Source: an uncultured Candidatus Saccharibacteria bacterium
GTDB taxonomy: Bacteria > Patescibacteriota > JABMPQ01 > JAQVVF01
Direction of reading: 5' to 3'
Length of the DNA stretch: 64,000 bases
Assembly: GCA_964574655.1 (NCBI GenBank)
Contig: CAZNOH010000001.1
Coordinates: forward strand, 73,852-137,851
Below the pieces are notes generated by a model. The model was not told the origin of the DNA and ran no database searches. It saw only the letters and a program-made list of their open reading frames with translations. Positions 5,382 through 51,507 of this stretch are shown here, in pieces. The stretch's first letter is position 1. The number at the start of each line of letters is the position of its first letter. The translations under genes were made by a program, and so were the position numbers.

Positions 5382-5780
5382 TTATTCTGTTGTTTTGTTG
5401 TCAAATTCTGGTGAATCTTTTATTGCGTCTTCTTTTGTTGCTCTAACAACGCCATCTTGATGATGAGCAGGCGAATAAATTGTGTAAAGTTTTAGATCTT
5501 CTGTGTCTGAAGTATTGATGATATTGTGTTGTGCGCCGGAAGGGACAATGATAACTGATCCGTCTTTTAATTCATATTCATTGCCATCAATAATACATTT
5601 GCCTTGGCCTTTTTCAAAACGGAAAAATTGGTCATTTTCATTATGAACTTCCATGCCGATTTCTTCTTTTGGTTTTAAACTCATTAAAACTAATTGGCTA
5701 TGTTTGCTGGTGTAAAGCACTTTGCGAAAGTTGGTGTTTTGTAAAGTTTCTTGCTCAATGTTGGCGTTGAATCCTTTCAT
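5382..5780 (-). CDS. cupin-domain protein
   Basis: 132 aa; cupin motif pattern (G..EY..K.GS....P.G..H...N) around VIIVPSGAQHNIINTSD. Confidence 0.6.
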   Translation of the reverse strand: MKGFNANIEQETLQNTNFRKVLYTSKHSQLVLMSLKPKEEIGMEVHNENDQFFRFEKGQGKCIIDGNEYELKDGSVIIVPSGAQHNIINTSDTEDLKLYTIYSPAHHQDGVVRATKEDAIKDSPEFDNKTTE

Positions 5781-5834
5781 ATTCTTTTTGTTAAATTGTT
5801 ATTAATCATATGATAAATTTTGTGAAATCGCTAA

Positions 5835-6086
5835 TTAAGTTCTGCTGCGTTTGATGCCAATTATCATTCCTAAAATTATGCCGATAATTATAAATAAAAT
5901 TACAGCGTAAAGATAGTTGAGATTATTTTGTGTGTCAGGAAAAAAGATCAAGGCAATCAGCCAAGATAGAAAATAGCCTAAAAGTCCGCCTAGAATTGTG
6001 TAGAGAGGAATGACAAAAATTGTTTGAATCCTCCTTTGTCTTGAGATTTCGGAGGACGAGGGATTTTTTTTGTTTTTTGATTTCAT
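5835..6086 (-). CDS. small membrane protein
   Basis: 83 aa, two TM helices, contiguous with flanking genes. Confidence 0.4.
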   Translation of the reverse strand: MKSKNKKNPSSSEISRQRRIQTIFVIPLYTILGGLLGYFLSWLIALIFFPDTQNNLNYLYAVILFIIIGIILGMIIGIKRSRT

Positions 6087-6476
6087 TTATTTTTCGACAA
6101 CTATTGTTTTACCACCAGCTTTCTTGATTATGCCAATTGCTAGATACTCAACATCTTTGGAACCAATATTTCTCATTCTATGCTTGGCTTGGGATGGGAT
6201 GTAAACAGTATCGGTAGCTTTTAATGTTGTTCTTTCTTCATCGATTTCAATTTCTGCTTTTCCAGATATGATAATAAAGATTTCGTTCATATTCTCATGA
6301 TAATGTTGAGCAAAGCTTTTATTTGGTTTCATTTTTGCCCAATTGATCATTTGAATAGTCCCTTTAATTTTAAGGTCGTCAATTGTGAAAATGATTTTTT
6401 TTAATACGCCAGGATTTTGAGTGTTTTCGTGGCTAGCAGGAATAAATTTTTTATTTTCTAGACTAAATTTTTTCAT
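6087..6476 (-). CDS. cupin-domain protein
   Basis: 129 aa; cupin beta-barrel motifs (IISGKAEIEID...VYIPSQAKHRMRN). Confidence 0.6.
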   Translation of the reverse strand: MKKFSLENKKFIPASHENTQNPGVLKKIIFTIDDLKIKGTIQMINWAKMKPNKSFAQHYHENMNEIFIIISGKAEIEIDEERTTLKATDTVYIPSQAKHRMRNIGSKDVEYLAIGIIKKAGGKTIVVEK

Positions 6477-6820
6477 TTTTGCTTGGTTAATTTTCTTATT
6501 TTTTTGATAACTGCATCTTGATAAAGACGAAAAGTTTTTTTATTTTCTTTAACGTAAATATAAGGCGTGCCAAGAATTTCGTTGCATTTTTTGCATTTTA
6601 AAACAGGAATTTTTTTTAGATCTAATGTTTGTAAATTTGTCAGCTCCTGTGGCGCAAAAATTCGATCTAAATACATTCTACGTAAATTACCTGGTCCATC
6701 TTTTTGATAAATAGCAACTATATTTTCACATTTTCGGCATAAAATATTTAACAGTCTTGAATGACCACCACGTGCTGATTTGTATTTATCTTTTTTGAAT
6801 GAGAAACTTGATTTTTTCAT
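6473..6820 (-). CDS. hypothetical zinc-ribbon protein
   Basis: 115 aa; CRKCEN...CKKCNE (two CxxC pairs); 4-bp overlaps with neighbours suggest an operon. Confidence 0.45.
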   Translation of the reverse strand: MKKSSFSFKKDKYKSARGGHSRLLNILCRKCENIVAIYQKDGPGNLRRMYLDRIFAPQELTNLQTLDLKKIPVLKCKKCNEILGTPYIYVKENKKTFRLYQDAVIKKIRKLTKQK

Positions 6821-7123
6821 CTAATTATTGGTCAATGTAAGAATAAAGCTAGTATTTTTATTGGCTTTTAGAGAATGAATTACATTTTTTTCCAAATAAA
6901 TAAATACTCCTGGTAACATTTTTATTTCTTTTTCTTCAAGATTGAAAATACCATCTCCTTCAATAACATAAACAAATCCTTGTTTTGTTGATGTATGATT
7001 TGATATCTCTGTATCTTTTGCCATGCAAAATAAGGTAATATTTAATTTACTATTTTTTACAATATCCTTGCTTAAGATTCCTTTTTTTGGATATTCAATT
7101 AGATCAGTCAACTTTTCATTCAT
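6821..7123 (-). CDS. cupin-domain protein
   Basis: 100 aa; GFVYVIEGDG...PGVFIYLEKNVIHSLKA cupin pattern. Confidence 0.55.
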   Translation of the reverse strand: MNEKLTDLIEYPKKGILSKDIVKNSKLNITLFCMAKDTEISNHTSTKQGFVYVIEGDGIFNLEEKEIKMLPGVFIYLEKNVIHSLKANKNTSFILTLTNN

Positions 7124-7581
7124 AATTTTTCAAATTTAATTTTGTCATTAATATTAATCATATTATTATTGCAGAATCCAGCATTAACTTCAACAACAAA
7201 TTGAGCAGGTATTTTTGATGGAATTGATATTTCGCTGAGCGGAACAGTATTGTTGTGAATAGCGATTATTTCTTCAAGCTTGTTGACATAGATAATATCA
7301 AGAGGAATTAAAGTATTTTTCATCCAGAAAGATAATTGTTTTTCTGCATCAAAAATAAATAGCATGCCGGAATTTTCTGGCAATGATTTCCGCCACATTA
7401 ATCCTTGAGTTCTGTTTTGATCATTATTAGCAATTTCGATATTGATTGTTGTAATCAGGCTATTATCTCTTCTTAAAAATTGCAGCTCGCCATCTTTGAT
7501 AAAGGCTGGAGTGATTCTATTTGTAACTTCATTATTTGTCTTGAAATAAAAAATTATAAAAATACTTGCTATGAAAAACAA
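7120..7581 (-). CDS. DUF192-family protein (COG1430-like)
   Basis: 153 aa; TQGLMWRKSLPENSGMLFIF...FWMKNTLIPLDIIYV matches the conserved DUF192 core. Confidence 0.55.
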   Translation of the reverse strand: MFFIASIFIIFYFKTNNEVTNRITPAFIKDGELQFLRRDNSLITTINIEIANNDQNRTQGLMWRKSLPENSGMLFIFDAEKQLSFWMKNTLIPLDIIYVNKLEEIIAIHNNTVPLSEISIPSKIPAQFVVEVNAGFCNNNMININDKIKFEKL

Positions 7582-7639
7582 TGCTATTAAAGAAATAACT
7601 AGTTTTTTATATTTGTAGAGAATATGATTTTAAAATTTA

Positions 7640-7900
7640 TTATATTAAGGCTGTGATGGCTGTAGCAATTCCTAAAATAATACCTGGAACATTGGCAATT
7701 ATAATAGGCCAGTCTTTTTTTGTTTTGAATGTACCATATGATGTCCAGGCAATACAGTTTATTGTTGTTATGATTGGCAGAACTATTGATCCTGTTTGAC
7801 CAGAGATATTTAATCTAATTTGATCTATATACGAAAAATACATGGTAACAGCCATTAAAGAAGCAAACCATCCAATTTTATTTACAATATTTTCGTTCAT
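7640..7900 (-). CDS. SemiSWEET-like small sugar transporter (3-TM PQ-loop/MtN3 family)
   Basis: 86 aa, three TM helices; size and topology of bacterial SemiSWEETs. Confidence 0.45.
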   Translation of the reverse strand: MNENIVNKIGWFASLMAVTMYFSYIDQIRLNISGQTGSIVLPIITTINCIAWTSYGTFKTKKDWPIIIANVPGIILGIATAITALI

Positions 7901-7940
7901 AATTATAAAAAATATTAATTAAGTTTTGTTTTGGAATTTC

Positions 7941-8043
7941 GCATAACGGAAGCATATATCTGATGTCCGTCGAAGCGTTAGCGTAGGCGGATATGGGTGA
8001 AGTTCACCTCGTGCGGGCATAACCAGAGATACGTTGTTGTGCG
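7941..8043. repeat. attC-like imperfect palindrome E1 (GCATAAC...GTTGTGC)
   Basis: Outer boxes fit RYYYAAC/GTTRRRY with one deviation; inner inverted repeats catatatctga/ccagagatac; abuts the stop of ORF 8047..8424. Confidence 0.45.
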
Positions 8044-8046
8044 ATG

Positions 8047-8424
8047 TTAAATAATTTTTTTCAAATTTCCCAAAATACTTTCCGTAAATGGTTTACTTAA
8101 TTCACCGTTAGTCATCCATTCAAAATATTCCATTTCAGTTTTATTATCGTCTAATTTGCGATAAGTATATTTTACAAAATAATTTTCATCTAAATCCGAC
8201 AAAATAAATACCTCATTTTTTTTAATGTCTACGACTTTATATTCATCCCAATTATCACTTTCTCCGCGATTTTTATATCTCGTATTTATTTTTGGAGGAT
8301 ATTCATCAGCAACCTCTACTGAAATGGAAGGAATCCATAAGTGAGTATTTTGGGGATTTGTTGTAAACTCAAATACTTTATCAATCGGTTTATCTATGAC
8401 AACTGTAATTTTGTTTTCTCTCAT
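8047..8424 (-). CDS. SRPBCC (Bet v1/polyketide-cyclase-like) ligand-binding domain protein
   Basis: 125 aa; size and hydrophobic pattern of the SRPBCC/START superfamily; cassette-like context. Confidence 0.45.
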   Translation of the reverse strand: MRENKITVVIDKPIDKVFEFTTNPQNTHLWIPSISVEVADEYPPKINTRYKNRGESDNWDEYKVVDIKKNEVFILSDLDENYFVKYTYRKLDDNKTEMEYFEWMTNGELSKPFTESILGNLKKII

Positions 8425-8447
8425 ATTTGAAAAAATTATTTAATTTC

Positions 8448-8515
8448 GTACAACGGTCGCGAATAAAACGCAGTTGCTTTACGCAGTAAACAATTGCGGT
8501 TATTCGCTGTTGTGC
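8448..8515. repeat. attC-like imperfect palindrome E2 (GTACAAC...GTTGTGC)
   Basis: 68 bp; inner 8-bp inverted repeats gcgaataa/ttattcgc; outer boxes fit RYYYAAC/GTTRRRY with one mismatch. Confidence 0.5.
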
Positions 8516-8539
8516 GATCGTACAAAACTTTGCATCAAT

Positions 8540-9070
8540 TTATTCAATTTCAAATTTGGTTATATTTATAATTTTTTCAACTATCTGATCTTCGGAATAT
8601 GATTCCGGTAGTATAGTTTCTAATTCATGACCTGATTTATGTGCTGCAGGAAACCACTGCCTTATTTCGTCCTGACCATACTCAAAATTTGCTTCTTTTT
8701 TTTGATGCCTCTTTACTGTTTCTTCAAAACTCACATCAAAATAAAAAATATAACTTTTACCACTATGTACTGTGATCAATCTTTCGATAATTGATTGATA
8801 GGACTTTACTGAAAGAATGCCCTCTAAAATAACATTATACCCAGCTTGTAGGGCAATAGCTGTATTATGTTCAATCATTTTATGGATAACATTAGCGTTT
8901 GATTTACTTCCACCTCCAGCGGGTTTAAAAATGAATCGATAATAATCTTGGTGAATGAGTGCGGTTTTGCTTTTTGCTTTTTTAAATAAATTTTTAGCAA
9001 CAGTTGTTTTTCCTGCAGCAGATGGACCACGTAAAATTATAAATATATTTTTAGATAACTTATTATTCAT
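8540..9070 (-). CDS. P-loop NTPase/kinase (AAA_33/zeta-toxin-like fold)
   Basis: Walker A ILRGPSAAGKTT; start refined to MNNKLSK so the CDS does not overlap element E3. Confidence 0.55.
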   Translation of the reverse strand: MNNKLSKNIFIILRGPSAAGKTTVAKNLFKKAKSKTALIHQDYYRFIFKPAGGGSKSNANVIHKMIEHNTAIALQAGYNVILEGILSVKSYQSIIERLITVHSGKSYIFYFDVSFEETVKRHQKKEANFEYGQDEIRQWFPAAHKSGHELETILPESYSEDQIVEKIINITKFEIE

Positions 9071-9093
9071 ATTTTTAGCAAAGTTTTGTATGT

Positions 9094-9190
9094 TGCACAA
9101 CGTATCCGAATATCGGAAGTTGTCGAAGCGTAGCGAAGGCAATTTGCGAAAATTGCGAGCTGAGCAATTTTCCCGATATTCGGTGTTAGG
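9094..9190. repeat. attC-like imperfect palindrome E3 (GCACAAC...GTTAGGC)
   Basis: 97 bp; perfect 11-bp inner inverted repeats ccgaatatcgg/ccgatattcgg; outer boxes RYYYAAC-like and GTTRRRY (GTTAGGC). Confidence 0.55.
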
Positions 9191-9266
9191 CGAGGGTTCT
9201 TTTGCTCTACCTTAATGTAATTATATCAGATAAAAGGGCAAAAGAAAGCGCAGCGACCCCTTGAGT
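9191..9266. repeat. conserved ~80-bp cassette leader, copy 1
   Basis: Near-identical to 10009-10085 (GAGGGTTC.TTTG.CT...AAAGCG.AGCG.CCCCTTG); internal inverted repeat cttttgc/gcaaaag. Confidence 0.5.
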
Positions 9267-9286
9267 TTCGCTTTTAAGCAATAATT

Positions 9287-9874
9287 TTATTTCGTTTTTC
9301 CTGCTAATTTCATTTTCTCGTTATAATGTGCTTCAACTTCTTTTTTTATTTCAGGCCACCTCATAATCCAATTAAGCCCATCACCAGCTGATTTTATTTC
9401 CTGGCTTTCTAAAATTTCTATACGCATGCAAAATCCAGCCTTATTTTTTTCAAGATACAAAAATTGTTTTTGCTCATCTGGCAGATTAAGCAAAAATTCA
9501 TCAGAAAAGTTTGGCCATGAATATTGCCCATCGCGAATCGGACGCAACTCTGTTCCGTTTGGCGCCTGGATATATGGCCTGCTGTGTATATTAAACCTGT
9601 ATATGCCGGATTGCCAATCTGACGTGTCAACTTCAAACCATCCTGGAAAATTTTTGCTTTCTGTCAGATTAACAGCTTCAATTCCAGAAATACGATGGCC
9701 TGGTTTATTTTTTTCAGATTCTTCTTTTACTCGCTCCTGTAATACACGCTGGTCATTGTTATCTATCGGGCCATCGGGGTTTGGTCCGATCCAAAGCTGG
9801 GCCTCGCCTAAACCCAATAATTCCTTATTGAGCAAAAACAAATTTTTGTCTTGGATTTTGATGAAGTTTTCCAT
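9287..9874 (-). CDS. hypothetical protein (cassette ORF)
   Basis: 195 aa; no recognisable domain; flanked by a perfect 23-bp inverted repeat (9267-9289 and 9881-9903). Confidence 0.5.
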   Translation of the reverse strand: MENFIKIQDKNLFLLNKELLGLGEAQLWIGPNPDGPIDNNDQRVLQERVKEESEKNKPGHRISGIEAVNLTESKNFPGWFEVDTSDWQSGIYRFNIHSRPYIQAPNGTELRPIRDGQYSWPNFSDEFLLNLPDEQKQFLYLEKNKAGFCMRIEILESQEIKSAGDGLNWIMRWPEIKKEVEAHYNEKMKLAGKTK

Positions 9875-9908
9875 AGATTTAAAAATTATTGCTTAAAAGC
9901 GAAATTTC

Positions 9909-10008
9909 GCCTAACGTCTGCCGATATGCGACGTTGTTACGACCGCAGGGAGTAACAATGTAGGTGAAGGCCGAGCCGAGGCCTGAACCGCATATCGTGC
10001 TGTTAGGC
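9909..10008. repeat. attC-like imperfect palindrome E4 (GCCTAAC...GTTAGGC)
   Basis: 100 bp; textbook outer boxes RYYYAAC and GTTRRRY; perfect 9-bp inner inverted repeats cgatatgcg/cgcatatcg; further internal palindromes gttgttac/gtaacaa and ggccgagccgaggcc. Confidence 0.6.
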
Positions 10009-10085
10009 GAGGGTTCATTTTGGCTTCCTTATTATAGTTTATCAAGAAAATGCCAAAATGAAAGCGTAGCGTCCCCTTGCGTTTA
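10009..10085. repeat. conserved ~80-bp cassette leader, copy 2
   Basis: Homologous to 9191-9266; internal inverted repeat cattttggc/gccaaaatg shows compensatory changes relative to copy 1. Confidence 0.5.
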
Positions 10086-10121
10086 TTTTTTCAAATTGCT
10101 TTTCACACCAGCTTTCGCTAC

Positions 10122-10151
10122 TTGACAGTTTGCCCGCCCTCGTGGTAATGT
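10122..10151 (+). promoter_or_regulatory. sigma70-like promoter TTGACA-18-TAATGT for the GC-rich ORF
   Basis: Canonical hexamers immediately upstream of SD aaggagg and the ATG at 10214. Confidence 0.45.
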
Positions 10152-10213
10152 GCAATGTCCTTTGGACCGTGCCTCACAAGGGGCGCGAAACCGCACTTTT
10201 AAGGAGGTGCAGG

Positions 10214-10447
10214 ATGGTCAAGAACGAGACCAAGATCAAGGTGTTCGAGGTGGGGAACGGCGACGACGAGTGTGTGAAGCGAAGCCGGAGCGTGGGCGAC
10301 GTGCTCGAGGAGCGCGTCAACGCGTGGCTCAGCGGACAGAGCATCAAGGTTCTGCAGGTCGTTCAGAGCACGAACACGTCGCCCGGGATGGCGAGCTCGA
10401 CCTACTTCAGCGTCACCCTCACGATCGTCTACGAGACGACTCGCTGA
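10214..10447 (+). CDS. small GC-rich xenologous protein (77 aa), possibly dodecin-like
   Basis: About 60% GC against a ~33% background; strong SD aaggagg 6 nt upstream; beta-alpha-beta-beta pattern loosely resembling dodecin flavin-binding proteins (weak); flanked by a 13-bp inverted repeat agtttgcccgccc/gggcgggcaaact. Confidence 0.5.
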   Translation: MVKNETKIKVFEVGNGDDECVKRSRSVGDVLEERVNAWLSGQSIKVLQVVQSTNTSPGMASSTYFSVTLTIVYETTR

Positions 10448-10464
10448 CGAACATCAAACCGCGC

Positions 10465-10509
10465 GCCCGTCCGTGTCCACTGACCAAGCGTTGGTGGGCA
10501 CGGGCGGGC
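10465..10509 (+). terminator. GC-rich hairpin downstream of GC-ORF1 (gcccgtccgtgtccac...gtgggcacgggcgggc)
   Basis: 16-bp imperfect stem followed by a T-rich tract about 30 nt downstream. Confidence 0.4.
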
Positions 10510-10585
10510 AAACTTCATTCACTCTACCGAGTGCTTTTTTATTTTACAAAACTTTCACGAAAAGCAATTTGAAAAAATAAATGTC

Positions 10586-10716
10586 GCTTAACGTTAAGAA
10601 TATCTGAAGTTCATTGTAGCATAGCGGAAATGAATTTGGGTCGAGAAAATTTCTTTTTCATTAATGTAAGGAATATAAAAGTGAGAAATTTTTGAGCCAG
10701 ATATTCTTTGTTATCG
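10586..10716. repeat. attC-like imperfect palindrome E5 (GCTTAAC...GTTATCG)
   Basis: 131 bp; perfect 11-bp inner inverted repeats aagaatatctg/cagatattctt; RYYYAAC outer box; reverse strand reads ...GTTAAGC (a GTTRRRY fit). Confidence 0.5.
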
Positions 10717-10734
10717 GATGTTTTACTCACGGTT

Positions 10735-11166
10735 TTATTGGAATAATTCCCTAATTTCATCCACATAAGGTTTTAGTTCATCAAACGACAAGTCCTGTTT
10801 AGTTTTGGGATCCCTATGAAAAAGATGATATTCAGGAAGCCTACTTTTATCACCATCCGTGCGAGGCATTACGTGAAAATGGAAATGTTCGACCATCTGT
10901 CCTGCATATTGACCTTCATTGAAACCATAATTAAAACCAGTTGGCTTCAAATATTCTTCATATTTTTTAGAAACCATTTGAACTGTAGTAATGAGGTCAA
11001 TCAATTCATCTTTGGTTAGTTCGCGAATATTTGTCACATGTCGTTTTGGCACCACAATACATTGTCCTTTATTTGCAGGACGAAAATTATGAATAACACG
11101 AACATTTTCATTTTCATACAATGATTGCGCTTCGATTATTTTTGGATCACAAAACGGACAGGTCAT
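10735..11166 (-). CDS. HIT-family (histidine triad) nucleotide hydrolase
   Basis: 143 aa; HFHFHVMPR histidine-triad motif; N-terminal CPFC. Confidence 0.8.
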   Translation of the reverse strand: MTCPFCDPKIIEAQSLYENENVRVIHNFRPANKGQCIVVPKRHVTNIRELTKDELIDLITTVQMVSKKYEEYLKPTGFNYGFNEGQYAGQMVEHFHFHVMPRTDGDKSRLPEYHLFHRDPKTKQDLSFDELKPYVDEIRELFQ

Positions 11167-11198
11167 ATTTTTAAAATTAAGTGAGTGAGCAAAATTTC

Positions 11199-11385
11199 CG
11201 ATAACGTTCCCGAGTATGCGAAGCCGCGCTATTGTTTTCAGTACAAACTTACGCTTTCAGATAATACTATTTTAGCACTTCAGACACTCGATTTCAAGAA
11301 GCGCGGTTTGGGAGAGGAAAATAGCGATACCTTTGAAAATATAAAAATTATCGCTATTTTCTGAACCGCATACTCGGTGTTATCG
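11199..11385. repeat. attC-like long imperfect palindrome E6 (CGATAAC...GTTATCG)
   Basis: 187 bp; perfect 10-bp inner inverted repeats cgagtatgcg/cgcatactcg; nested inverted repeats aagccgcgc/gcgcggttt and aaatagcgata/tatcgctattt. Confidence 0.45.
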
Positions 11386-11570
11386 GATGTAAATTATTTT
11401 CATTTTTCGATTTTTTTCAACTATTCAAGGGCGAATTTTGATTCCGTTTGGCGGGGGCGCAAGAGGGGAATAAAAGGGGTGAATTGCGCCCCCGCCAATC
11501 ACTTCGTTTAAAATGAAGAAGGCCAGCGGTAATTTTCGATTGCTCGAATTTCCCGCTGGCTTAGCCCTCC

Positions 11571-12035
11571 CTATTTCTCGCAAACACCGACGAGTACGCA
11601 GTGAGGACCGCAACGATCATCGTCGGCGTATTGCTTGAGGCCGCGCGTAGGACCTCCACTGATAAAGAAGCTGCTCCTCGAACCCCCAATGAAGGCCATA
11701 TACGGGGCATCATTCAGTCCCAAATTATGGTCTTTTGCAGGGGGCAAGAGAGCTTCTGCGGGGTCGCAGAGACGCACGCCAACCTCACGAAAAGCGGCTT
11801 CCACGTCCGCACGGTAGACGATCCCGTCTGCACGCTTGAACAGCTTGCCGGAGACGATGCAGAACATCACCGTCTCGACACCCTGCCGCTCGGTCGGGAA
11901 GTTGTTGTCGGTGATGTCCCTGTCTACGCCATGGTATTGACCCTCACTGGCGAGTTGGGCGATGATGTGCGAGTTCCTGTTGAGCTGGAGCACGATCTTG
12001 TTGTCCGCGATTGCTCTTTTGAGTGTTTGCGACAT
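11571..12035 (-). CDS. GC-rich xenologous hypothetical protein (154 aa)
   Basis: About 58% GC with strong GC3 bias at the 5' end; SD aaaggagag 5 nt upstream of the ATG; two GC-rich hairpins downstream (tggcgggggcgca...tgcgcccccgcca; gccagcgg...ccgctggc); no confident family. Confidence 0.5.
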   Translation of the reverse strand: MSQTLKRAIADNKIVLQLNRNSHIIAQLASEGQYHGVDRDITDNNFPTERQGVETVMFCIVSGKLFKRADGIVYRADVEAAFREVGVRLCDPAEALLPPAKDHNLGLNDAPYMAFIGGSRSSFFISGGPTRGLKQYADDDRCGPHCVLVGVCEK

Positions 12036-12104
12036 TTTCACTCTCCTTTTGTGTTTGTCTTTCCCCGCACCCGTCGCGGAGTTAGACAATTTAATCTATC
12101 ATGT

Positions 12105-12134
12105 ATATAATACTTGTAAATACTATATGTCAGT
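12105..12134 (-). promoter_or_regulatory. candidate promoter (CTGACA-18-TTATAT) reading into the cassette array
   Basis: On the minus strand, about 70 nt upstream of the GC-ORF2 start; a Pc-like position. Confidence 0.3.
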
Positions 12135-12265
12135 AAATAATGATAAAATATGCTAAAATAAAGCAAAATAATGAGATAAATTACAAAATGTAAGTAATTA
12201 TTGACACAATTTAGCTGTTGTGATAGGATAGAAAAATCTATCTTGGATATTTAGCCACCAAACCT

Positions 12266-13051
12266 ATGGAAAACTTAATCAAAGATCTCGGACTTGATGA
12301 AAACGAGGCGAATGTATATCAAGCCCTTTTGGAACTTGGGCCGTCTACTGTTAGCCAAATAACAAGAAAAGCGGGAATTACCCGAACATTCGGCTATCAA
12401 ATTTTAGAAAAGTTAAGTGTGTATGGATTTGTCAATCGTGTATCGGGGGAGGGTGCAAAAATTCGTTTTGTAGCAGAACACCCGAGACGCTTAGTGCAGT
12501 TTATCCAAAACAGAAAAAATCAATGGGAAAGACGTCTTAAAGAAGCAGAAGACAGATTACCTGATTTAGTATCTTTGTATAAACTTGCCGATAAACCTAC
12601 TATTAAATATCTGGAAGGCATAGAAGGAGTAAAGTCAATTTTCATCCAAACACTTGAGTCAAAAGAGGAAATTTTTTCTATTTTGGACATCGAGGGTTGG
12701 GATATTCCTGAATTTCAAAGTTGGGGTAGAGAATATAACCGAGAAAGAAGTGCGCGGAAAGTAAAAGAAAGAATACTTATGTATGACACGCCACAAGGTA
12801 GGGAGTGGATGGATGACTATCGGGGTTCGTTCAAATATACAAACTGTCGTTGGATAAAGCCCGAAGATTTACCAGGAATTAGAGAATTCGGTGGCGAAAT
12901 AAATGTTTATGAAAATAAAGTTGTAATGGCCTTGCTGAAAAAGCCAAACATAATGGGGGTGGTGATTGAAAGCCAAGCATTGTCAAATATTTTAAAAGGT
13001 TTGTTTGAGTTGGCGTGGAAGCAAGGTATTGAAGTCAAAAGAAAAAAATAA
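12266..13051 (+). CDS. TrmB-family transcriptional regulator
   Basis: 261 aa; N-terminal wHTH LGLDENEANVYQALLELGPSTVSQITRKAGITRTFGYQILEKL typical of TrmB; promoter TTGACA-17-TAGGAT at about 12203. Confidence 0.65.
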   Translation: MENLIKDLGLDENEANVYQALLELGPSTVSQITRKAGITRTFGYQILEKLSVYGFVNRVSGEGAKIRFVAEHPRRLVQFIQNRKNQWERRLKEAEDRLPDLVSLYKLADKPTIKYLEGIEGVKSIFIQTLESKEEIFSILDIEGWDIPEFQSWGREYNRERSARKVKERILMYDTPQGREWMDDYRGSFKYTNCRWIKPEDLPGIREFGGEINVYENKVVMALLKKPNIMGVVIESQALSNILKGLFELAWKQGIEVKRKK

Positions 13052-13057
13052 AAAATC

Positions 13058-13083
13058 GTCCCGCCCGAGTATACGGGCGGGAC
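13058..13083 (+). terminator. GC-rich hairpin gtcccgcccg-agtata-cgggcgggac
   Basis: Perfect 10-bp stem after the trmB-like stop; no T-run, so it could be a recombination or regulatory site instead. Confidence 0.35.
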
Positions 13084-13260
13084 ATCATATTTCCCCTAAT
13101 CAAATAATTATCAAAATTCGCCCCTCAATTATCAAAAAAATCGAAAAATGAAAATAATTTATTTCCGATAACTCGTTTATATCTATAATGTTTACAAATA
13201 GTATGCTAAATTTTGTATAATTGTGCTATATTATTGTTGTAAAAAGTAATTTTTTATTTA

Positions 13261-14072
13261 TGCCTAGTTTAATAGAAATTATGAAGCGGGACATGGAAAT
13301 CCTAAATTACAGCCAAAAGACAATTGATGCTTATCAACGAAATATTGCGGAATTGTATAGATTTGTAAAAAAGCCATTGAGGAATTTAGATGAGAATTCG
13401 ATAAAGGATTTTTTGAGCCAGAAACAGAAAAAAGGTTTATCAAGTCAGTCCATTGCTTTGGCGGTGAATGCGATTAATTTTCTTTATACTCGCATATACA
13501 AGGATCCTGATTATAAAAAAATGCGACATCCTAAGCGTTCTAAACGTTTGCCAGTGGTATTGTTGAAATCAGAGATTGAAAGAATTATTGAGCAGACAAA
13601 TAATAGAAAACATAAATTAATTATTGCATTGGCGTATGCTGGTGGTTTGCGTGTTAGTGAGGTTGTCAGTCTCAAGGTTCAAGATATTGATATAGATGCT
13701 TTGACATTGATAGTTCGACAGGGGAAAGGAAAAAAGGATAGATTAACAGTGCTTTCTAAAAGAATTATATCAGATTTGAGTGAAATGATAAATGGCAAGC
13801 ATAGTTTTGATTATGTTTTTGAAAGTGAACGAGGTGGCAAGTTGACTGTAACAACAGTTCAAAAAGTATTTAGCAAATGTTTAGAAAAATCAGGGGTTAA
13901 AAAACCTGTGACTTTTCATTCTTTGCGCCATAGTTTTGCAACGCACTTGTTAGAGAATGGCACTGATATTCGCTATATTCAAGAATTGCTAGGACATCAA
14001 AATATTCGAACAACGCAAATTTATACGCAAGTAACGAATCCGAGTATTAGGAAAATTGTAAGTCCGTTTTAG
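13261..14072 (+). CDS. tyrosine site-specific recombinase (XerC/XerD/IntI-like)
   Basis: C-terminal HSLRHSFATHLL...LLGHQNIRTTQIYTQV (R-H-R-Y catalytic region); RLPVVL and GKGKKDR boxes; N-terminal SAM-like core-binding domain resembling IntI/Xer; an alternative start at 13221 is possible. Confidence 0.85.
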
Positions 14073-14133: not shown

Positions 14134-17100
14134 ATGATAGGAAAGCCATCTGAAGAAATAAAAGAGCGGTTGGATATTGTGGATTTGATTTCAGAATATA
14201 TTCAACTAACACCTGCTGGTGTTAATAATTTTAAAGCAAGGTGTCCTTTTCATAATGAAAAAACGCCGTCTCTTTTTGTATCCAAAGATAAGCAGATTTT
14301 TAAATGTTTTGGATGTTTTCCCAAGGGTGCAATCATTAGAACGGTAGAAGGCAACAAGGCAATTGATCGATTGAAAATTGGTGATTTAGTCTTGACGCAT
14401 AAAAGTCGATATAAGCCGGTAATTAAGTTATTTAAAAGAGATTATAAGGGACTTATGGTTGATGTTATAACGCGAAAATTGAATGAAGTTGTTTCTCTGA
14501 CTTCTGATCATAAAGTTTTTGTAATAAAAACAATAAATTGTAAACAAAAAAATAGAGAATCAAGGATTTGCCAACTACGATGTACGCAGAATTGTCCGAC
14601 TAAATATTTTAAGGATTATAAAATTAAAAAAATATTAGCAGGAGAATTGAAGCAGAATGATTATTTGCTTTATCCAATCGATGAAAAAGTTGTTGATATA
14701 AAAAAAATAAATTTAAAAAAATATTTGACTAAGAAAAAACCAATTCATGGCAAGGAGATTAGAAAATTGCCTGATTACTTAACTGTTAATTCTGATTTAT
14801 TAAAGTTATTAGGCTATTGGATTGCTGAGGGCAGTAGTCATCGAGCATATATCAGATTTAGTCTTGGCAATCATGAAGAAATTTTTGCTAATGATATTGT
14901 AAAATTGCTTTTTAAAGTTTTTAAATTAAAAGCAAGTATTTATCGAAGAAAAAATACTGAAAAAACAGGCTTAGAGATAACTTGTTGCAATTCTAATTTG
15001 GCGAATATTTTTGAAAATTTGTGTGGAAAGGGTGCTTTGAATAAACATATACCATTTGAATTTGTGAATTTACTTGCTAGAAAACAAAGAATTTTGTTAG
15101 AGGCGATTCATCGAGGGGATGGTTATCAAGGGTTTGTGAATGATAGTAAAAGAAAATATAGAGCAATTACGGTAATTTCTAGAACTTTGACAGATCAGAT
15201 GAAAGAGATTTTGTTGCGTTTAAATTTAATGCCAACTTTGTTTATTGCTGATGAAAAAGTTGACAAGAAAGGGGTTCGTCATAAAAAATCTTACACTCTA
15301 AGCTGGCAGGAAAATATTTTAGGGCATTATGCTGATTTTTATAGATTTGATAAAATTAAATATTGGATTTTGCCAATAAGAAAAATTGTGAAAAGAAAAT
15401 TTTCTGGAACTGTTTATAATTTGATGGTAAAAGATGATCATTCTTATACAACAACAAATTTTACAGTTGGTAATTGTGGAGAGGGCGGCGATGTTTTTTC
15501 TTTTGTGATGAAAATGGAAGGATTGGAATTTGTTGATGCATTAAGAATTTTGGCGGTTAAAGCTGGCGTGGAATTGAAACGCGAACAGCCAGAATTTTAT
15601 TCTAAGCGAGCAAGAGTTTTAGAAATTTTAAAATTATCAGCGGAATATTATAATTTAGCATTATTAAAAAGTAAAAGCGGACAAATTGCTAGGGATTATA
15701 TTGCGACAAGGAAATTAAAATCAGAAACTGTTAGTCAATTTAAATTAGGATTTTCACCTGATGATTGGGAAATGCTGTCTAGGTTTTTAAAGTCTCGTGG
15801 ATTCAGAGATGATGAAATTTTAGCAAGTGGAATGGTTGTGCCAAAAGATTATGGCAGATATTATGATCGATTTAGATTTAGATTAATGTTTCCGATTTGG
15901 GATGGACAGAATAATGTGGTTGGATTTACGGCCAGACAATTGAGAGAAGAAAAAAATATGGGCAAGTATATTAATACTTCGCAAAGCTTGGTTTATGATA
16001 AGAGCCGAGTGATTTATGGATTGAATTTTGCTAAGTCAGATATAAGAAGAGAGGATAGGGTGGTAATAGTTGAGGGCAATATGGATGTGATTGCATCGCA
16101 TCAGGCAGGAGTTAAAAATGTTGTGGCATCTTCTGGGACGGCTTTGACTTCAATGCAAATTGATTTGATAAAAAGGTATACAAATAATGTTGTTTTTTCT
16201 TTTGATATGGATTTGGCTGGAAATATGGCAACACAGAGAGGAATTGATTTGGCATTGGAATCAGGATTGAATATTAAAGTGGCAGTACCTAAAAAAAACA
16301 ATGACGTGAAAGATCCTGATGATATTATAAAAACAGAAGGCGTTAAGGCATGGAAAGATGTAATTAATTCGGCAAAATCAATTATGGATTATTATTTTGA
16401 AAGCAATGCAGAAAAATTAAATTTAACTGAAGTTTTAGATAAAAAAATAATGGCAAAGTTTTTATTGCCAAAGATTAAAAAAATTCCGGACAAGGTTGAG
16501 CAGGCGCATTATTTGCAAAAATTGGCAGGATTGCTTTTGGTTGGTGAGGATATTTTGCGAGAAGCAATGGGAAAAACACGAGTTTTACATGGCTATGGAA
16601 GATCGGCAAGTGCAAAAGCATCCGCCTTCGCTCCAACTGTGGTTGGAGCTTCCACCTACGCAAATGCTTCGGCGGACAAGCCGGTGGACAAAGAAAGCGA
16701 AACTGAATTGTTGCAGGAGCGTCTTTTTGGCTTGATAATGTCTGATTTTGAGAACTTTAAAAAGCTAGAAAGCTTTGATTTAGGGTTATTTAATGATCAA
16801 ATAAGTTCACTTTACAAAAGAATAAAAGAATATTATAATGATAACAAATCATTTGAGTTCAACGTCTTTAGTTCTGAATTAGAAAAGGATTCAGTTGTTT
16901 TGTCTTTATTTGCCAAGGAGCTAGTTTTGGGGATTGAAAAGGAGCAAAGTCAGCGAGAGAAAGGTGAAATTTTTGAAATCAAAAAAGAGGTAGATAGATG
17001 CCTGAACAGATTGACAGAAAATGATTTAAAGAAAAGATTAATGGATATTGAGGCGCAAATGCGCAATGCAGAGGTCAGCAAAAATGTAGAGAAGGTTACT

Positions 17101-17163
17101 GATTTGAGCAAGCAGTTTAATGTTTTGTCACAAAAGTTAGATAAAGTTAACGAGATTATCTAA
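14134..17163 (+). CDS. dnaG: DNA primase DnaG interrupted by an intein
   Basis: CPFHNEKTPSLF...FKCFG | intein | CGEGGDVFSFVM reconstitutes the zinc-binding CHC2 motif; TOPRIM VVIVEGNMDVIASHQAG; 1009 aa including a 387-aa intein. Confidence 0.9.
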   Translation: MIGKPSEEIKERLDIVDLISEYIQLTPAGVNNFKARCPFHNEKTPSLFVSKDKQIFKCFGCFPKGAIIRTVEGNKAIDRLKIGDLVLTHKSRYKPVIKLFKRDYKGLMVDVITRKLNEVVSLTSDHKVFVIKTINCKQKNRESRICQLRCTQNCPTKYFKDYKIKKILAGELKQNDYLLYPIDEKVVDIKKINLKKYLTKKKPIHGKEIRKLPDYLTVNSDLLKLLGYWIAEGSSHRAYIRFSLGNHEEIFANDIVKLLFKVFKLKASIYRRKNTEKTGLEITCCNSNLANIFENLCGKGALNKHIPFEFVNLLARKQRILLEAIHRGDGYQGFVNDSKRKYRAITVISRTLTDQMKEILLRLNLMPTLFIADEKVDKKGVRHKKSYTLSWQENILGHYADFYRFDKIKYWILPIRKIVKRKFSGTVYNLMVKDDHSYTTTNFTVGNCGEGGDVFSFVMKMEGLEFVDALRILAVKAGVELKREQPEFYSKRARVLEILKLSAEYYNLALLKSKSGQIARDYIATRKLKSETVSQFKLGFSPDDWEMLSRFLKSRGFRDDEILASGMVVPKDYGRYYDRFRFRLMFPIWDGQNNVVGFTARQLREEKNMGKYINTSQSLVYDKSRVIYGLNFAKSDIRREDRVVIVEGNMDVIASHQAGVKNVVASSGTALTSMQIDLIKRYTNNVVFSFDMDLAGNMATQRGIDLALESGLNIKVAVPKKNNDVKDPDDIIKTEGVKAWKDVINSAKSIMDYYFESNAEKLNLTEVLDKKIMAKFLLPKIKKIPDKVEQAHYLQKLAGLLLVGEDILREAMGKTRVLHGYGRSASAKASAFAPTVVGASTYANASADKPVDKESETELLQERLFGLIMSDFENFKKLESFDLGLFNDQISSLYKRIKEYYNDNKSFEFNVFSSELEKDSVVLSLFAKELVLGIEKEQSQREKGEIFEIKKEVDRCLNRLTENDLKKRLMDIEAQMRNAEVSKNVEKVTDLSKQFNVLSQKLDKVNEII
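14314..15474 (+). mobile_element. intein with LAGLIDADG homing endonuclease inside dnaG
   Basis: Starts with Cys (CFPKGAIIRT); block B TSDHKV; two LAGLIDADG motifs (LLGYWIAEGSS and LLEAIHRGDGYQG); ends ...NFTVGN followed by the Cys+1 of the extein. Confidence 0.8.
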
Positions 17164-18459: not shown

Positions 18460-18575
18460 TTGTTTGTGATATCTTTTTTAGAATAACAAAATAACTAAAT
18501 AACATAATAACAAAAGTGAATTATAAATTAGAAATTTTGTTATTTATAATTTAGTCATTTAGTTATTAATAATGT

Positions 18576-18647
18576 TCCCAGGTAGCGCAGTGGTAGCGCA
18601 GGAGACTGTTAATCTCTTGGTCGCGAGTTCGAATCTCGCCCTGGGAG
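18576..18647 (+). tRNA. tRNA-Asn (anticodon GUU)
   Basis: Cloverleaf resolved by hand: acceptor tcccagg/cctggga, D-stem gcgc/gcgc, anticodon stem ggaga/tctct with loop cuGUUaa, T-arm gcgag-ttcgaat-ctcgc; CCA not encoded. Confidence 0.8.
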
Positions 18648-18654
18648 TTCAAAA

Positions 18655-25921: not shown

Positions 25922-27016
25922 TTATCTTACAGTTAGTTTTATTTTCGGACTTTTCTTTTTATTATTAATAGTTTTTGCTTTGTAGTAGAATTTGCCTTTT
26001 TCAATTGCTTTGAATTTGTAGTCATAATAACCATTTTTCTTTTTTGTTTTTACTTGGGCTAAGAATGTAAATTCACTAGTGCCTTTTTTCTTATAGTAAA
26101 TATTAATTGCTGTGCCTTTTTTGCCTTTGGCTAACCAGCCGTAAAGTTTGGCGGTTTTATTTTTCTTGATTTTATTTTCGACAAAGGCAGCGCTTAATTT
26201 TTCTCTTTCTTGGGCCATAATTGTTTTACTGATTGTTGATGTAGCACTGGTATTGGTGTCGCCGGCTGTGAAAGTCAGATCAATATCAAAAATTACGCCG
26301 TTATCAGCAGTTACGGTTTTATTGATTGTGGATTGTTGGCCATCAATAAACAAAGCCATGTCAGCTGGAGTAACGGTCTTGCCAGACATAGTTGACATTA
26401 AGGTTAGCATTGTGCCAGGCATGTAAATTGTGTAGTAGCCTTTTAATCCGGCTGGGCCATTTAAGGTTAAACCAAAGCCCATTTGCTCTCTGGAAGTTGG
26501 AGGGCTGATTTGCCAATCAGTGATATTGGTGGAGACATAGCCGCCGGCCATGGAAGCAGGAGGTCCGGAAGTTTGAGGATTTTGCGGGGTTGGATCTTCG
26601 CCTGGAGCAATAAAGACAAAAGCTGATTCATTTGCTAGTTGGTTGTTGTCAGGAATAATAAATTGGTCGCCAATCCAGACAATTGTTGCTTGATGAGTCG
26701 TGGTATTGTAAGTGTAGCTTTGGATGAGCCCGCCGCTAATTAGTAGCATTGGAGAATAGAGTAGTTCTGTATCTGTGCCACTGACTGTAAAAATGCCAGT
26801 GTAGGTTGTGCCAGGAGCGTCATAACCAATGCCAAAAGTGACTTCTGTGCCACCTCTTGATGGTGTTGATTGGCGCGTGACTGGCGCTGCTGAGCCGTCT
26901 GAAAGCGTGATGGGAGCAGTGTCGTAGTCGACACTGTAAGCATCAGCTAATGTTGGGAGAAAGAATAGAATTCCTGCTCCAACAATAAAGAGGCTCAAGA
27001 CTAAGAGTCTTTTCAT
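25922..27016 (-). CDS. secreted Thr/Gly-rich surface protein with Lys-rich C-terminal tail
   Basis: Signal peptide ...FFLPTLADA; low-complexity T/G-rich central region; KKKGxxxYKxK C-terminal tail. Confidence 0.5.
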   Translation of the reverse strand: MKRLLVLSLFIVGAGILFFLPTLADAYSVDYDTAPITLSDGSAAPVTRQSTPSRGGTEVTFGIGYDAPGTTYTGIFTVSGTDTELLYSPMLLISGGLIQSYTYNTTTHQATIVWIGDQFIIPDNNQLANESAFVFIAPGEDPTPQNPQTSGPPASMAGGYVSTNITDWQISPPTSREQMGFGLTLNGPAGLKGYYTIYMPGTMLTLMSTMSGKTVTPADMALFIDGQQSTINKTVTADNGVIFDIDLTFTAGDTNTSATSTISKTIMAQEREKLSAAFVENKIKKNKTAKLYGWLAKGKKGTAINIYYKKKGTSEFTFLAQVKTKKKNGYYDYKFKAIEKGKFYYKAKTINNKKKSPKIKLTVR

Positions 27017-50961: not shown

Positions 50962-51108
50962 TAATAAAAATTTTTTTCGATAATAGCTAATAATCAATAA
51001 CCAATAATCAATTAATAACCAATTATCAATAATCAAAAGTTTTGAAATTTGGTTATTGAGTATTGGATATTGTTTGGTGATTGGATATTGGTTATTATGT
51101 TTAATTAA

Positions 51109-51507
51109 TGGAGGTGGCGAGAATTGCACTCGCGTGTAAAAAGTTTGCTTAAAAAACTTTTACAAGTTTATTTAGTTTTGGTTGTCTCGAATAATAAACT
51201 TAAAACCAAAAAAATATTTATTACTCAAAGCCATTAAAGTTTTCAATAATCTCTAAGGCGAGAGATTATCTACATTCGTACGATGACACCCAAATTCCCA
51301 CACACGAATCTAGCGGGATGGATGGTAATCGGGTATTAAGCGATTACAGTTGAAGGTTGAAATGAAAAAGATTGAGCAAAAGCTTTTACTTTTTCAGAGA
51401 CCTTTGTTAATAAGTTTGCACTTATAAAATGCAAGAAGTTTTGAGAGTATCTTGCGACTCTACATGAATTTTTTAAACTGCGCTCTTTAGCGAAGCTTTT
51501 CACCCCC
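51109..51507 (-). ncRNA. ssrA: candidate tmRNA (ssrA)
   Basis: Minus-strand 5' GGGGGUG pairs with 3' CACCUCC-A to form a 7-bp acceptor stem with a G3:U70 wobble (alanine identity) and an A discriminator; T-arm-like GCGAG-UGCAAUU-CUCGC just 5' of the 3' acceptor strand; about 400 nt; adjacent to smpB. The tag ORF is not confidently resolved. Confidence 0.5.

Follow-up and report, generated by a model that had tools for sequence, protein, structure and literature searches.

A stretch of 64,000 nucleotides (nt) from an uncultured Candidatus Saccharibacteria bacterium (assembly GCA_964574655.1, contig CAZNOH010000001.1, positions 73,852-137,851 of the forward strand; this whole stretch is referred to as the window) probably carries an integron-like cassette platform, consisting of a Xer/IntI-type tyrosine recombinase without the I2 insertion of integron integrases, a core site beside the recombinase gene and six cassettes bounded by hairpin-forming elements. 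The anatomy of this locus, its conservation among bacteria of the Candidate Phyla Radiation (CPR), an exchange point at TAA|C and the turnover of cassettes between genomes are established by comparison of related sequences. An original prediction, made from this DNA alone, had proposed an integron or a cluster of attC sites lacking an integrase (CALIN). The cassette array, the chain of matching boxes and an attI-like site uphold that view; membership of the classical integron family fails on two defining features, as I2 is absent and the extrahelical bases are located on the AAC arm.

The recombinase gene (13260-14072, + strand), which the original prediction overlooked together with the attI-like site, encodes a protein of 270 amino acids (aa) related to IntI and XerA. 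Searches with Pfam recover a Phage_integrase domain and a SAM_4 N-terminal domain. The protein scores above the cut-off of NCBIfam NF040815 ('tyrosine recombinase/integron integrase', XerA type), and matches TIGR02249 (integron integrase) in two pieces with a score of 208.7, below the cut-off of 265. Among proteins of solved structure, the closest in sequence is the integron integrase VchIntIA of Vibrio cholerae (2A3V, E 2.5e-45), to which it aligns in two stretches that skip chain residues 199-238. These residues presumably correspond to the IntI-specific insert that contains the I2 helix (MacDonald et al. 2006). With an AlphaFold model (predicted local distance difference test, pLDDT, 86.9) as query, 2A3V also ranks first by structure (TMq 0.79) and archaeal XerA next, and the Foldseek alignment occupies 312 columns for the 270-aa query. 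Homologues were collected from 80 GTDB loci of many Patescibacteria lineages, found via the recombinase protein (sample 1; individual loci are designated by L numbers), and in all 80 the aligned span is within 9 aa of the length of the window protein. By these alignments the IntI-specific additional domain (I2, about 40 residues) is absent from the recombinase. The family comprises 6390 clusters at E <= 1e-40, almost all of about 270 aa, which are named in their sources XerD, 'tyrosine-type recombinase/integrase' or 'tyrosine recombinase/integron integrase'.

The six elements that had been proposed between 7941 and 11385 are all present on the + strand, at 7941-8043 (E1), 8448-8515 (E2, 68 nt), 9095-9191 (E3, shifted by one base), 9909-10008 (E4), 10586-10716 (E5) and 11199-11385 (E6, 187 nt). 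On this strand each element runs from ATTTC-NNNTAAC through a 3-6-nt spacer starting with G, an inner stem, a variable centre, the return arm and usually one T to GTTNNNN-GATGT; the family consensus of the arms is ATTTC-NNNTAAC ... GTTANNN-GATGT. A perfect inner repeat, claimed for all six, is found in E2 to E6 (8, 11, 9, 11 and 11 bp), with spacers of 4 nt and 1 nt in each of E2 and E3, while that of E1 is imperfect (about 8/11). On the left the strict form RYYYAAC is likewise confined to E4 and E5, and on the right GTTRRRY is confined to E3 and E4; only AAC and GTT are invariant. A loose scan for such elements gives about 5.6 matches per 64 kb in Markov controls, so that a single match is not significant. 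As the central region varies from about 20 to 150 nt, the search of related loci used two arm profiles built from the family, left and right, together with an explicit count of pairs. Applied to the 64 kb, the profiles match E3 to E6 strongly (E 4e-4 and 0.01 for the arms of E3, 26.3 and 25.4 bits for those of E6) and E1 and E2 weakly, all in the correct order and on the correct strand, and the remainder of the 64 kb yields one chance-level match (E = 7.2, opposite strand). E1 (left box GCATAAC, right box GTTGTGC), the degenerate attC analogue of the most distal cassette, has only a weak right-arm match of 12.1 bits; its right flank and the left flank of E2 share 30 nt of complementarity. An Rfam search of the region in gathering and E-value modes returned nothing relevant, and a match to Spot 42 (27.6 bits) was rejected as chance.

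The array does not end at 12081-12134, where a GTTAGAC box and an outward promoter had been taken as its limit, but runs to 13172, about 1.1 kb further. The box and promoter at 12081-12134 fall within the divergent promoter region between a gene for a 155-aa protein and a gene for a TrmB-like regulator; GTTAGAC at 12081 was considered as attI and rejected, being the -35 region of a promoter-like site in this intergenic region. The attI-like site, with a dif-like core, is located at 13161-13190 (+ strand), about 90 nt upstream of the recombinase ATG, and reads ATTTCCGATAA-CTCGTTT-ATATCTATAAT, with a likely crossover at 13171|13172. The right box of E6, GTTATCGG, has its partner, CCGATAAC, at 13165-13172, inside this site (ATTTCCGATAAC-TCGTTTATATC). 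Of 61 loci, 54 have the core consensus ATTTCnnnTAA-CTnGTTT-TTATnCnAAnT just before the recombinase gene. Inverted repetition of the two 11-nt arms is apparent only with a 7-nt centre (arm identity peaks at 6.8/11), and this 11-7-11 arrangement, as read from the aligned loci, is that of classical core sites and similar to dif. Most loci have a second conserved motif, TTGTATRTTATRCRAAC, some 45 nt downstream of the core (about 13205-13235 in the window), where it forms a direct repeat of the attI right arm and overlaps the likely recombinase promoter. This motif recalls the DR1/DR2 accessory sites of attI1 and may have a role in autoregulation.

The outer boxes connect each element to its neighbour and the last element to the attI-like site. 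At the four variable box positions the mean number of mismatches is 0.78 between neighbours (n/n+1), 1.84 within an element and 2.11 in random pairs, and 19 of 36 neighbouring-box pairs are perfect. Within the window the mismatches number 1, 0, 0, 1 and 0 between neighbours, the left box of E3 for example matching the right box of E2 perfectly, and 1, 1, 2, 0, 3 and 0 within elements. The right box of the last element matches attI perfectly in 23 of 35 loci, and the longest chain (L067) has ten complete elements in 9 kb with perfect boxes throughout.

Comparison of genomes places the exchange at the same boxes. Window positions 11193-13172 are 95% identical over 1985 nt, a segment that includes E6, to a locus in a Magasanikbacteria metagenome-assembled genome (L082), while the recombinase genes of the two are only about 70% identical, as judged from a 204-nt fragment only. 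This homology stops exactly at ...ATTTCCGATAAC; the window then continues into attI, and L082 into a hairpin body, one extra cassette (161 aa) and its own attI, such that the new cassette sits between the shared cassette and attI. In three further pairs of loci (L009/L013, L060/L070 and L022/L069) a shared cassette end leads into a hairpin in one member and into attI in the other, and in L032/L035 two different left boxes are attached to the same hairpin body. Since the breakpoints fall at TAAC, the exchange point lies in or beside TAA|C of the left arm. Turnover is also seen where the flanks are kept: a locus with an 83% identical recombinase (L207) retains DUF192 on the left and recombinase-dnaG-rpoD on the right, and the interval between them carries entirely different genes from those of the window. 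The original prediction had proposed to search relatives for the same elements around different open reading frames (ORFs), and cassettes homologous to those of the window do turn up in other arrays and at other positions, in one case with DNA that is 95% identical. The attI-proximal cassette of L029, for instance, carries a homologue, at 69% identity, of the gene of the most distal window cassette. A search for an identical recombinase with a different array gave only one 4-kb contig, with the same arrangement. In L207 a single 4.2-kb unit between one hairpin and attI (5573-9892), with matching boxes, encodes a HinfI-type restriction-modification system, comprising one endonuclease, two methyltransferases and two further ORFs.

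Two independent samples were used to follow the system among genomes. In sample 1, at an arm-profile cut-off of E < 0.01, 90 left and 76 right arms were recovered, all on the recombinase strand and all upstream of the gene, with none downstream; at least one arm is present in 34 of the 39 loci that have at least 2 kb of upstream sequence. Elements in related loci have a median length of 121 nt (range 78-197). Sample 2 consists of at least 120 metagenome contigs found via the element pattern ATTTCNNNTAACGTNNNNGNNTATNNGAWGTT and is thus blind to the recombinase. Among the matches listed, 271 left and 231 right arms are on the seed strand and one is on the other, and 13 contigs have a recombinase homologue, which in 12 is downstream of all arms on the same strand and is usually preceded by an attI-like site. 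Viral contigs gave no match to this pattern, which leaves a phage vehicle unsupported. Contigs of sample 1 break within 1.5 kb of the recombinase on the upstream side in 41 loci and on the downstream side in 8 (p = 2e-6), as is expected if the array is repetitive or variable within populations. One locus (L066, JADHVH010000026.1), labelled Candidatus Pacearchaeota archaeon, has a recombinase with 50% identity and two typical elements; either the contig is misbinned or the system is also present in DPANN archaea.

The elements are intergenic, palindromic and repeated, and two small inserts described below (A and B) resemble small insertions, all of which would suit dispersed palindromes of the repetitive extragenic palindromic (REP) or miniature inverted-repeat transposable element (MITE) kind, or transcription terminators, unrelated to recombination. 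Such an origin is scarcely credible, as the elements are confined to one locus in 64 kb and, over about 1 Mb of related loci, to the recombinase-upstream side, the boxes complement those of the neighbouring element and not those of the same one, no Rfam family matches, and the strand-specific marks considered next are antisense to the cassette genes.

Among 60 elements 92.9% of the L-stem positions are paired, and 11 of the 14 pairs vary on both sides (GC 20, CG 18 and AU 15 at one of them); none of 500 shuffles reaches the observed values, and slid registers pair at 30-44%. This covariation points to selection for pairing and not for a repeated binding sequence. Strand asymmetry is seen in two further features. 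The + strand has 139 G·T pairs, compared with 39 positions at which the - strand would have one (2.3 vs 0.65 per element). Inside arrays there are 87 copies of GCGNAGC on the + strand and 8 on the - strand, and outside them the corresponding numbers are 156 and 144. GCGNAGC is reportedly an unusually stable DNA mini-hairpin with a GNA loop, a property attributed to Hirao and colleagues. Since the + strand is antisense to most cassette genes, these marks favour folding of DNA over folding of mRNA, and they indicate that the recombinase-sense (+) strand would be the one that folds. Single-stranded folding of E1 to E5, a check that the original prediction had proposed, is in agreement for E2 to E5, with z scores of -3.7 to -5.8 as + strand (E2 -4.7, E4 -5.8), and not for E1, which at -1.3 folds no better than shuffles; in all five the + strand folds are stabler than the - strand folds. 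The recombined bottom strand of classical attC sites shows a comparable excess of G:T pairs (1.24 vs 0.39) and a GAA loop (Nivina et al., PMC5027507).

The polarity of the unpaired bases is the reverse of that in classical attC sites. There the extrahelical bases are opposite the cleaved AAC, and moving them to the AAC arm strongly reduced the activity of IntI1 on VCR2 and attC-oxa2 (PMC5027507). In the present elements the extra bases are on the left, 5′ arm of the + strand, which carries the AAC: the spacer there is 3-4 nt vs 1 nt, and a conserved AA/AT bulge separates the 11-bp L stem from a further GTT/AAC stem. A canonical reading, in which the - strand would be the bottom strand, was rejected on two grounds: the left arm is the one that recurs in attI, and every homology breakpoint falls at the TAAC of that arm. 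In the VchIntIA structure the I2 segment contacts the extrahelical bases (PMC7790495); the mirrored extrahelical bases and the absence of I2 fit together.

A mechanism that would do without the palindrome in recombination is the exchange of double-stranded modules, where the left half of each element and attI serve as duplex core sites in the manner of Acinetobacter pdif and the palindrome is used otherwise. The left arm and the next 20 nt or so do align with the attI core (ATTTC-NNNTAAC-...TATnnGAAGT), and a recombinase without I2 suits such a reaction. It appears improbable given that L'' and L' vary freely and stay complementary, that the G·T pairs and GCGNAGC are strand-specific and antisense to most cassette mRNAs, and that all sites have one orientation, unlike the alternating pdif sites. 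The pdif sites of Acinetobacter are 28-bp duplex sites of alternating orientation found on plasmids. The resemblance to them consists in gene modules that are bounded by Xer-type sites and are found in different contexts; the present sites differ as hairpins of 68-197 nt, in one orientation, beside one chromosomal recombinase gene.

The core site also suits an account in which the recombinase is primarily a chromosome-dimer resolvase (a 'Cand' Xer), 13161-13190 is its dif site and the cassettes are passengers comparable to integrative mobile elements exploiting Xer (IMEX). This overlaps with the cassette platform and differs from it mainly in the primary role of the recombinase; we consider it a possible but rather unlikely explanation. 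The dif architecture of the core site speaks for it, as the left arm, ATTTCACATAA, is identical at 10/11 positions to what we take to be the reverse complement of the XerD arm of Escherichia coli dif, and so does the size of a family that is very large and often named XerD. Single-recombinase systems with the site beside the gene exist (XerS/difSL). The recombinase may further be taken as a putative member of the Xer-related 'Cand' recombinases of candidate phyla, which Smyshlyaev et al. assumed to be Xer substitutes (PMC8138268). On the other side, a terminus-like switch of GC skew is found at the site in 0 of 19 loci, a weak observation in that short flanks follow gene orientation, and the window has positive skew to the left and to the right of it. 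The site adjoins dnaG-rpoD both here and in L207, with genes diverging, which is not terminus-like, and kilobases of changing inserts on one side and in one polarity are the behaviour of a platform. Compared more broadly with Xer/dif systems and IMEX (CTX-phi, XerS/difSL, XerH/difH and archaeal XerA), the locus has in common a Xer-type protein without I2 and a dif-like core, and with CTX-phi a proposed substrate in which a folded single strand re-creates the core site (PMC7790495). Unlike them it carries promoter-poor single-gene cassettes with no replication or phage functions, in one-polarity arrays of up to 10 or more, and lacks terminus-like skew.

Likeness to classical integrons is extensive: the recombinase gene adjoins attI, the mostly single-ORF cassettes are divergent from it, the elements are imperfect palindromes with paired R and L boxes, a variable centre and AAC/GTT cores, the exchange is in or beside AA|C and the outer box is shared out between neighbouring cassettes, cassettes are gained at the attI end, an excess of G·T pairs and a purine-rich triloop mark the cleaved strand, and the nearest solved protein is an integron integrase. 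The differences lie in the recombinase without I2, in an attI that is a plain dif-like 11-7-11 core, in an R box followed by a 4x1 loop vs spacers of about 5/6 nt, in unpaired bases on the AAC arm, in a longer conserved arm (ATTTC-NNNTAA), in extended inverted repeats of 20-75 nt at the cassette ends and in CPR hosts. An ordinary integron array (a CALIN), with a canonical IntI elsewhere and a recombinase that is its neighbour by coincidence, would explain the R''-L''...L'-R' layout, the AAC/GTT cores, the lengths in or near the attC range and the label 'tyrosine recombinase/integron integrase' that PGAP gives to some family members. We regard it as very improbable, given that adjacency, strand and order relative to the recombinase are conserved in two independent samples, that the box chain ends at the site beside the recombinase gene, that the window has no second tyrosine recombinase at E < 1e-20 in its 64 kb, and that unpaired bases on the AAC arm are a geometry that strongly reduces recombination by IntI1 (PMC5027507). 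Integron software would probably nonetheless call the array a CALIN if its attC model matches, since no I2-bearing IntI is present in the window. Integrons and CALINs have also been reported from archaea, with 6 IntIs for 539 attCs in 75 genomes (Ghaly et al. 2022, PMC9668308); these arrays are similar in occurring in small-genome lineages, DPANN included, and mostly lack a detectable IntI, and they are dissimilar in that the reported archaeal IntIs have the additional domain that is missing from the present recombinase.

The most likely mechanism would be a strand-specific recombination of hairpins by an I2-less Xer/IntI-like enzyme. Each palindrome would fold when the recombinase-sense (+) strand is single-stranded, whereby the R stem would re-create the left arm of the core site and the 11-bp L stem would replace the right arm, with a 4x1-nt internal loop and the 2-nt AA/AT bulge in place of the central region. 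The recombinase would then cleave after TAA on the 5′ arm, and the cleaved strand would be exchanged with attI for insertion or with another hairpin for excision, the junction being resolved by replication as in integrons and CTX-phi. The junction of a circular cassette would consist of the cassette's ATTTCNNNTAA joined to its own C-hairpin.

Several observations weigh against this reading or against parts of it. E1 and E2 are degenerate, 12 of 35 attI chains are imperfect, and solo elements occur several kb from any recombinase. The seeds of the arm profiles were first picked by a perfect stem, by which the pairing may be inflated, the arms then being searched independently. Covariation and strand asymmetry are the only evidence for a single-stranded substrate, and each element has a left half that looks like an entire duplex core, from which a two-strand exchange would give the same junctions. 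In addition, the I2 helix is taken to allow the use of folded single strands and to avoid exchange of the second strand; the gain of I2 by a Xer-like ancestor is held to have given rise to this ability, and Escudero et al. consider I2 confined to integron integrases, with no evolutionary intermediates known (PMC7790495).

Beside these points, nested palindromes and 'empty' mini-cassettes are encountered next to attI, within the 200 nt or so before it, in eight loci (L021, L026, L032, L035, L043, L046, L069 and L078), an example being GTTATTC-AAAATGGAGCGGAGCGGAATTTT-GAATAAC; these were missed by the arm profiles and probably explain several of the imperfect attI chains. Solo or paired elements with no recombinase homologue within 3-6 kb (L094, L153, L157, L186, L190 and L206) may be the equivalents of CALINs or single attC sites.

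Whether an I2-less Xer/IntI-like recombinase captures single-stranded hairpin cassettes across the CPR, and perhaps DPANN archaea, with a polarity mirrored relative to attC, appears to us evenly balanced. If it does, the system would be an intermediate between Xer/dif and integrons or an independent invention, and I2 would be unnecessary for the recombination of hairpin cassettes; a natural I2-less system with integron architecture makes the question of the origin of integrons open to experiment. It would also be a main route of gene gain in the CPR, in view of cassettes of foreign GC content, the restriction-modification cassette and 95% identical cassettes beside recombinases that are about 70% identical, and it would account for a systematic break in CPR genome assemblies. 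Surveys that require IntI ('complete' integrons of IntegronFinder) would overlook such platforms. A search of the literature, with most subscription journals outside its scope, yielded no account of CPR cassette arrays or of integron-like systems lacking I2, and the I2-less platform is probably a new variant of integron-like systems.

The organization of the units, proposed as one ORF each with five of six on the - strand, is borne out, each ORF filling its unit. Cassette 1, next to attI (11205-13171), is composed of two genes, a GC-rich 155-aa ORF (11571-12038, -) and the divergent gene for the TrmB-like regulator (12266-13051, +). Cassette 2 (10592-11204) encodes a HIT-family hydrolase (10735-11166, -; PF01230, 2e-21), and cassette 3 (9915-10591) a GC-rich ORF of 77 aa (10214-10447, +) that is inverted relative to the others and is followed by a terminator at 10520-10541. 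The ORF of cassette 4 (9101-9914), of 195 aa (9287-9874, -), has no family match, that of cassette 5 (8454-9100) matches P-loop kinases (8540-9070, -; AAA_33 / zeta-toxin-like), and that of cassette 6 (7947-8453) is an SRPBCC-like ORF of 125 aa (8047-8424, -) with a weak match to PF10604. Two of the window cassettes have about 56-60% GC vs 32% for the genome. In 66 units of related loci the median spacing of elements is 795 nt; of 56 units, 47 have their longest ORF directed away from the recombinase, and this ORF takes up a median of 81% of the unit. The inverted repeat formed by the two ends of a cassette continues past the 7-nt box, for 64 nt in cassette 1 and about 20-30 nt in cassettes 2, 5 and 6, so that excision would give a hairpin longer than the arrayed element.

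The 155-aa gene and the gene for the TrmB-like regulator recur as a conserved divergent pair in four contexts (the window, L082, L085 and L086), and in L085 the pair adjoins a Fic gene and a DDE transposase. Following the regulator gene in the window is a GC-rich hairpin, GTCCCGCCCG-AGTATA-CGGGCGGGAC, at 13057-13084, which is terminator-like on both strands and would stop read-through from the attI side into the array.

Two of the right boxes are followed by inserts. Insert A (9194-9260, +), a structured element of about 66 nt with a GCGCAGC mini-hairpin, is located directly after GTTAGGCGA and breaks the extended inverted repeat of the cassette end, which resumes at 9266-9282 vs 9886-9902. 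Its homologue, insert B (10011-10076, +), has compensatory changes in the hairpin. Inserts of about 66 nt follow the ninth base of the right box (GTTAGGCGA|) in L009, L065, L078 and other loci as well; they have the form GGGT..hairpin..AAGCGCAGCGNCCCC, again with compensatory changes in the hairpin. A second type, CCCG...GAGAGCGCAGCGTGG, is found after right boxes in other loci, and the inserts of both types may target the site as small mobile or structural elements.

Elsewhere in the window, a tmRNA at 51106-51507 (-, 97.7 bits) identifies the organism as a bacterium, and a tRNA-Asn is located at 18575-18648 (+). An ORF of 364 aa at 25922-27016 (-), which has no Pfam match and coincides with a local GC peak of 0.425 vs about 0.32, may be another acquired gene. 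Downstream of the recombinase, a DnaG primase homologue of 1009 aa (14134-17163) contains an intein in its zinc-ribbon region (residues about 56-445), composed of a Hint domain and a LAGLIDADG homing endonuclease; the DnaG of L207 has 617 aa and is without the intein.

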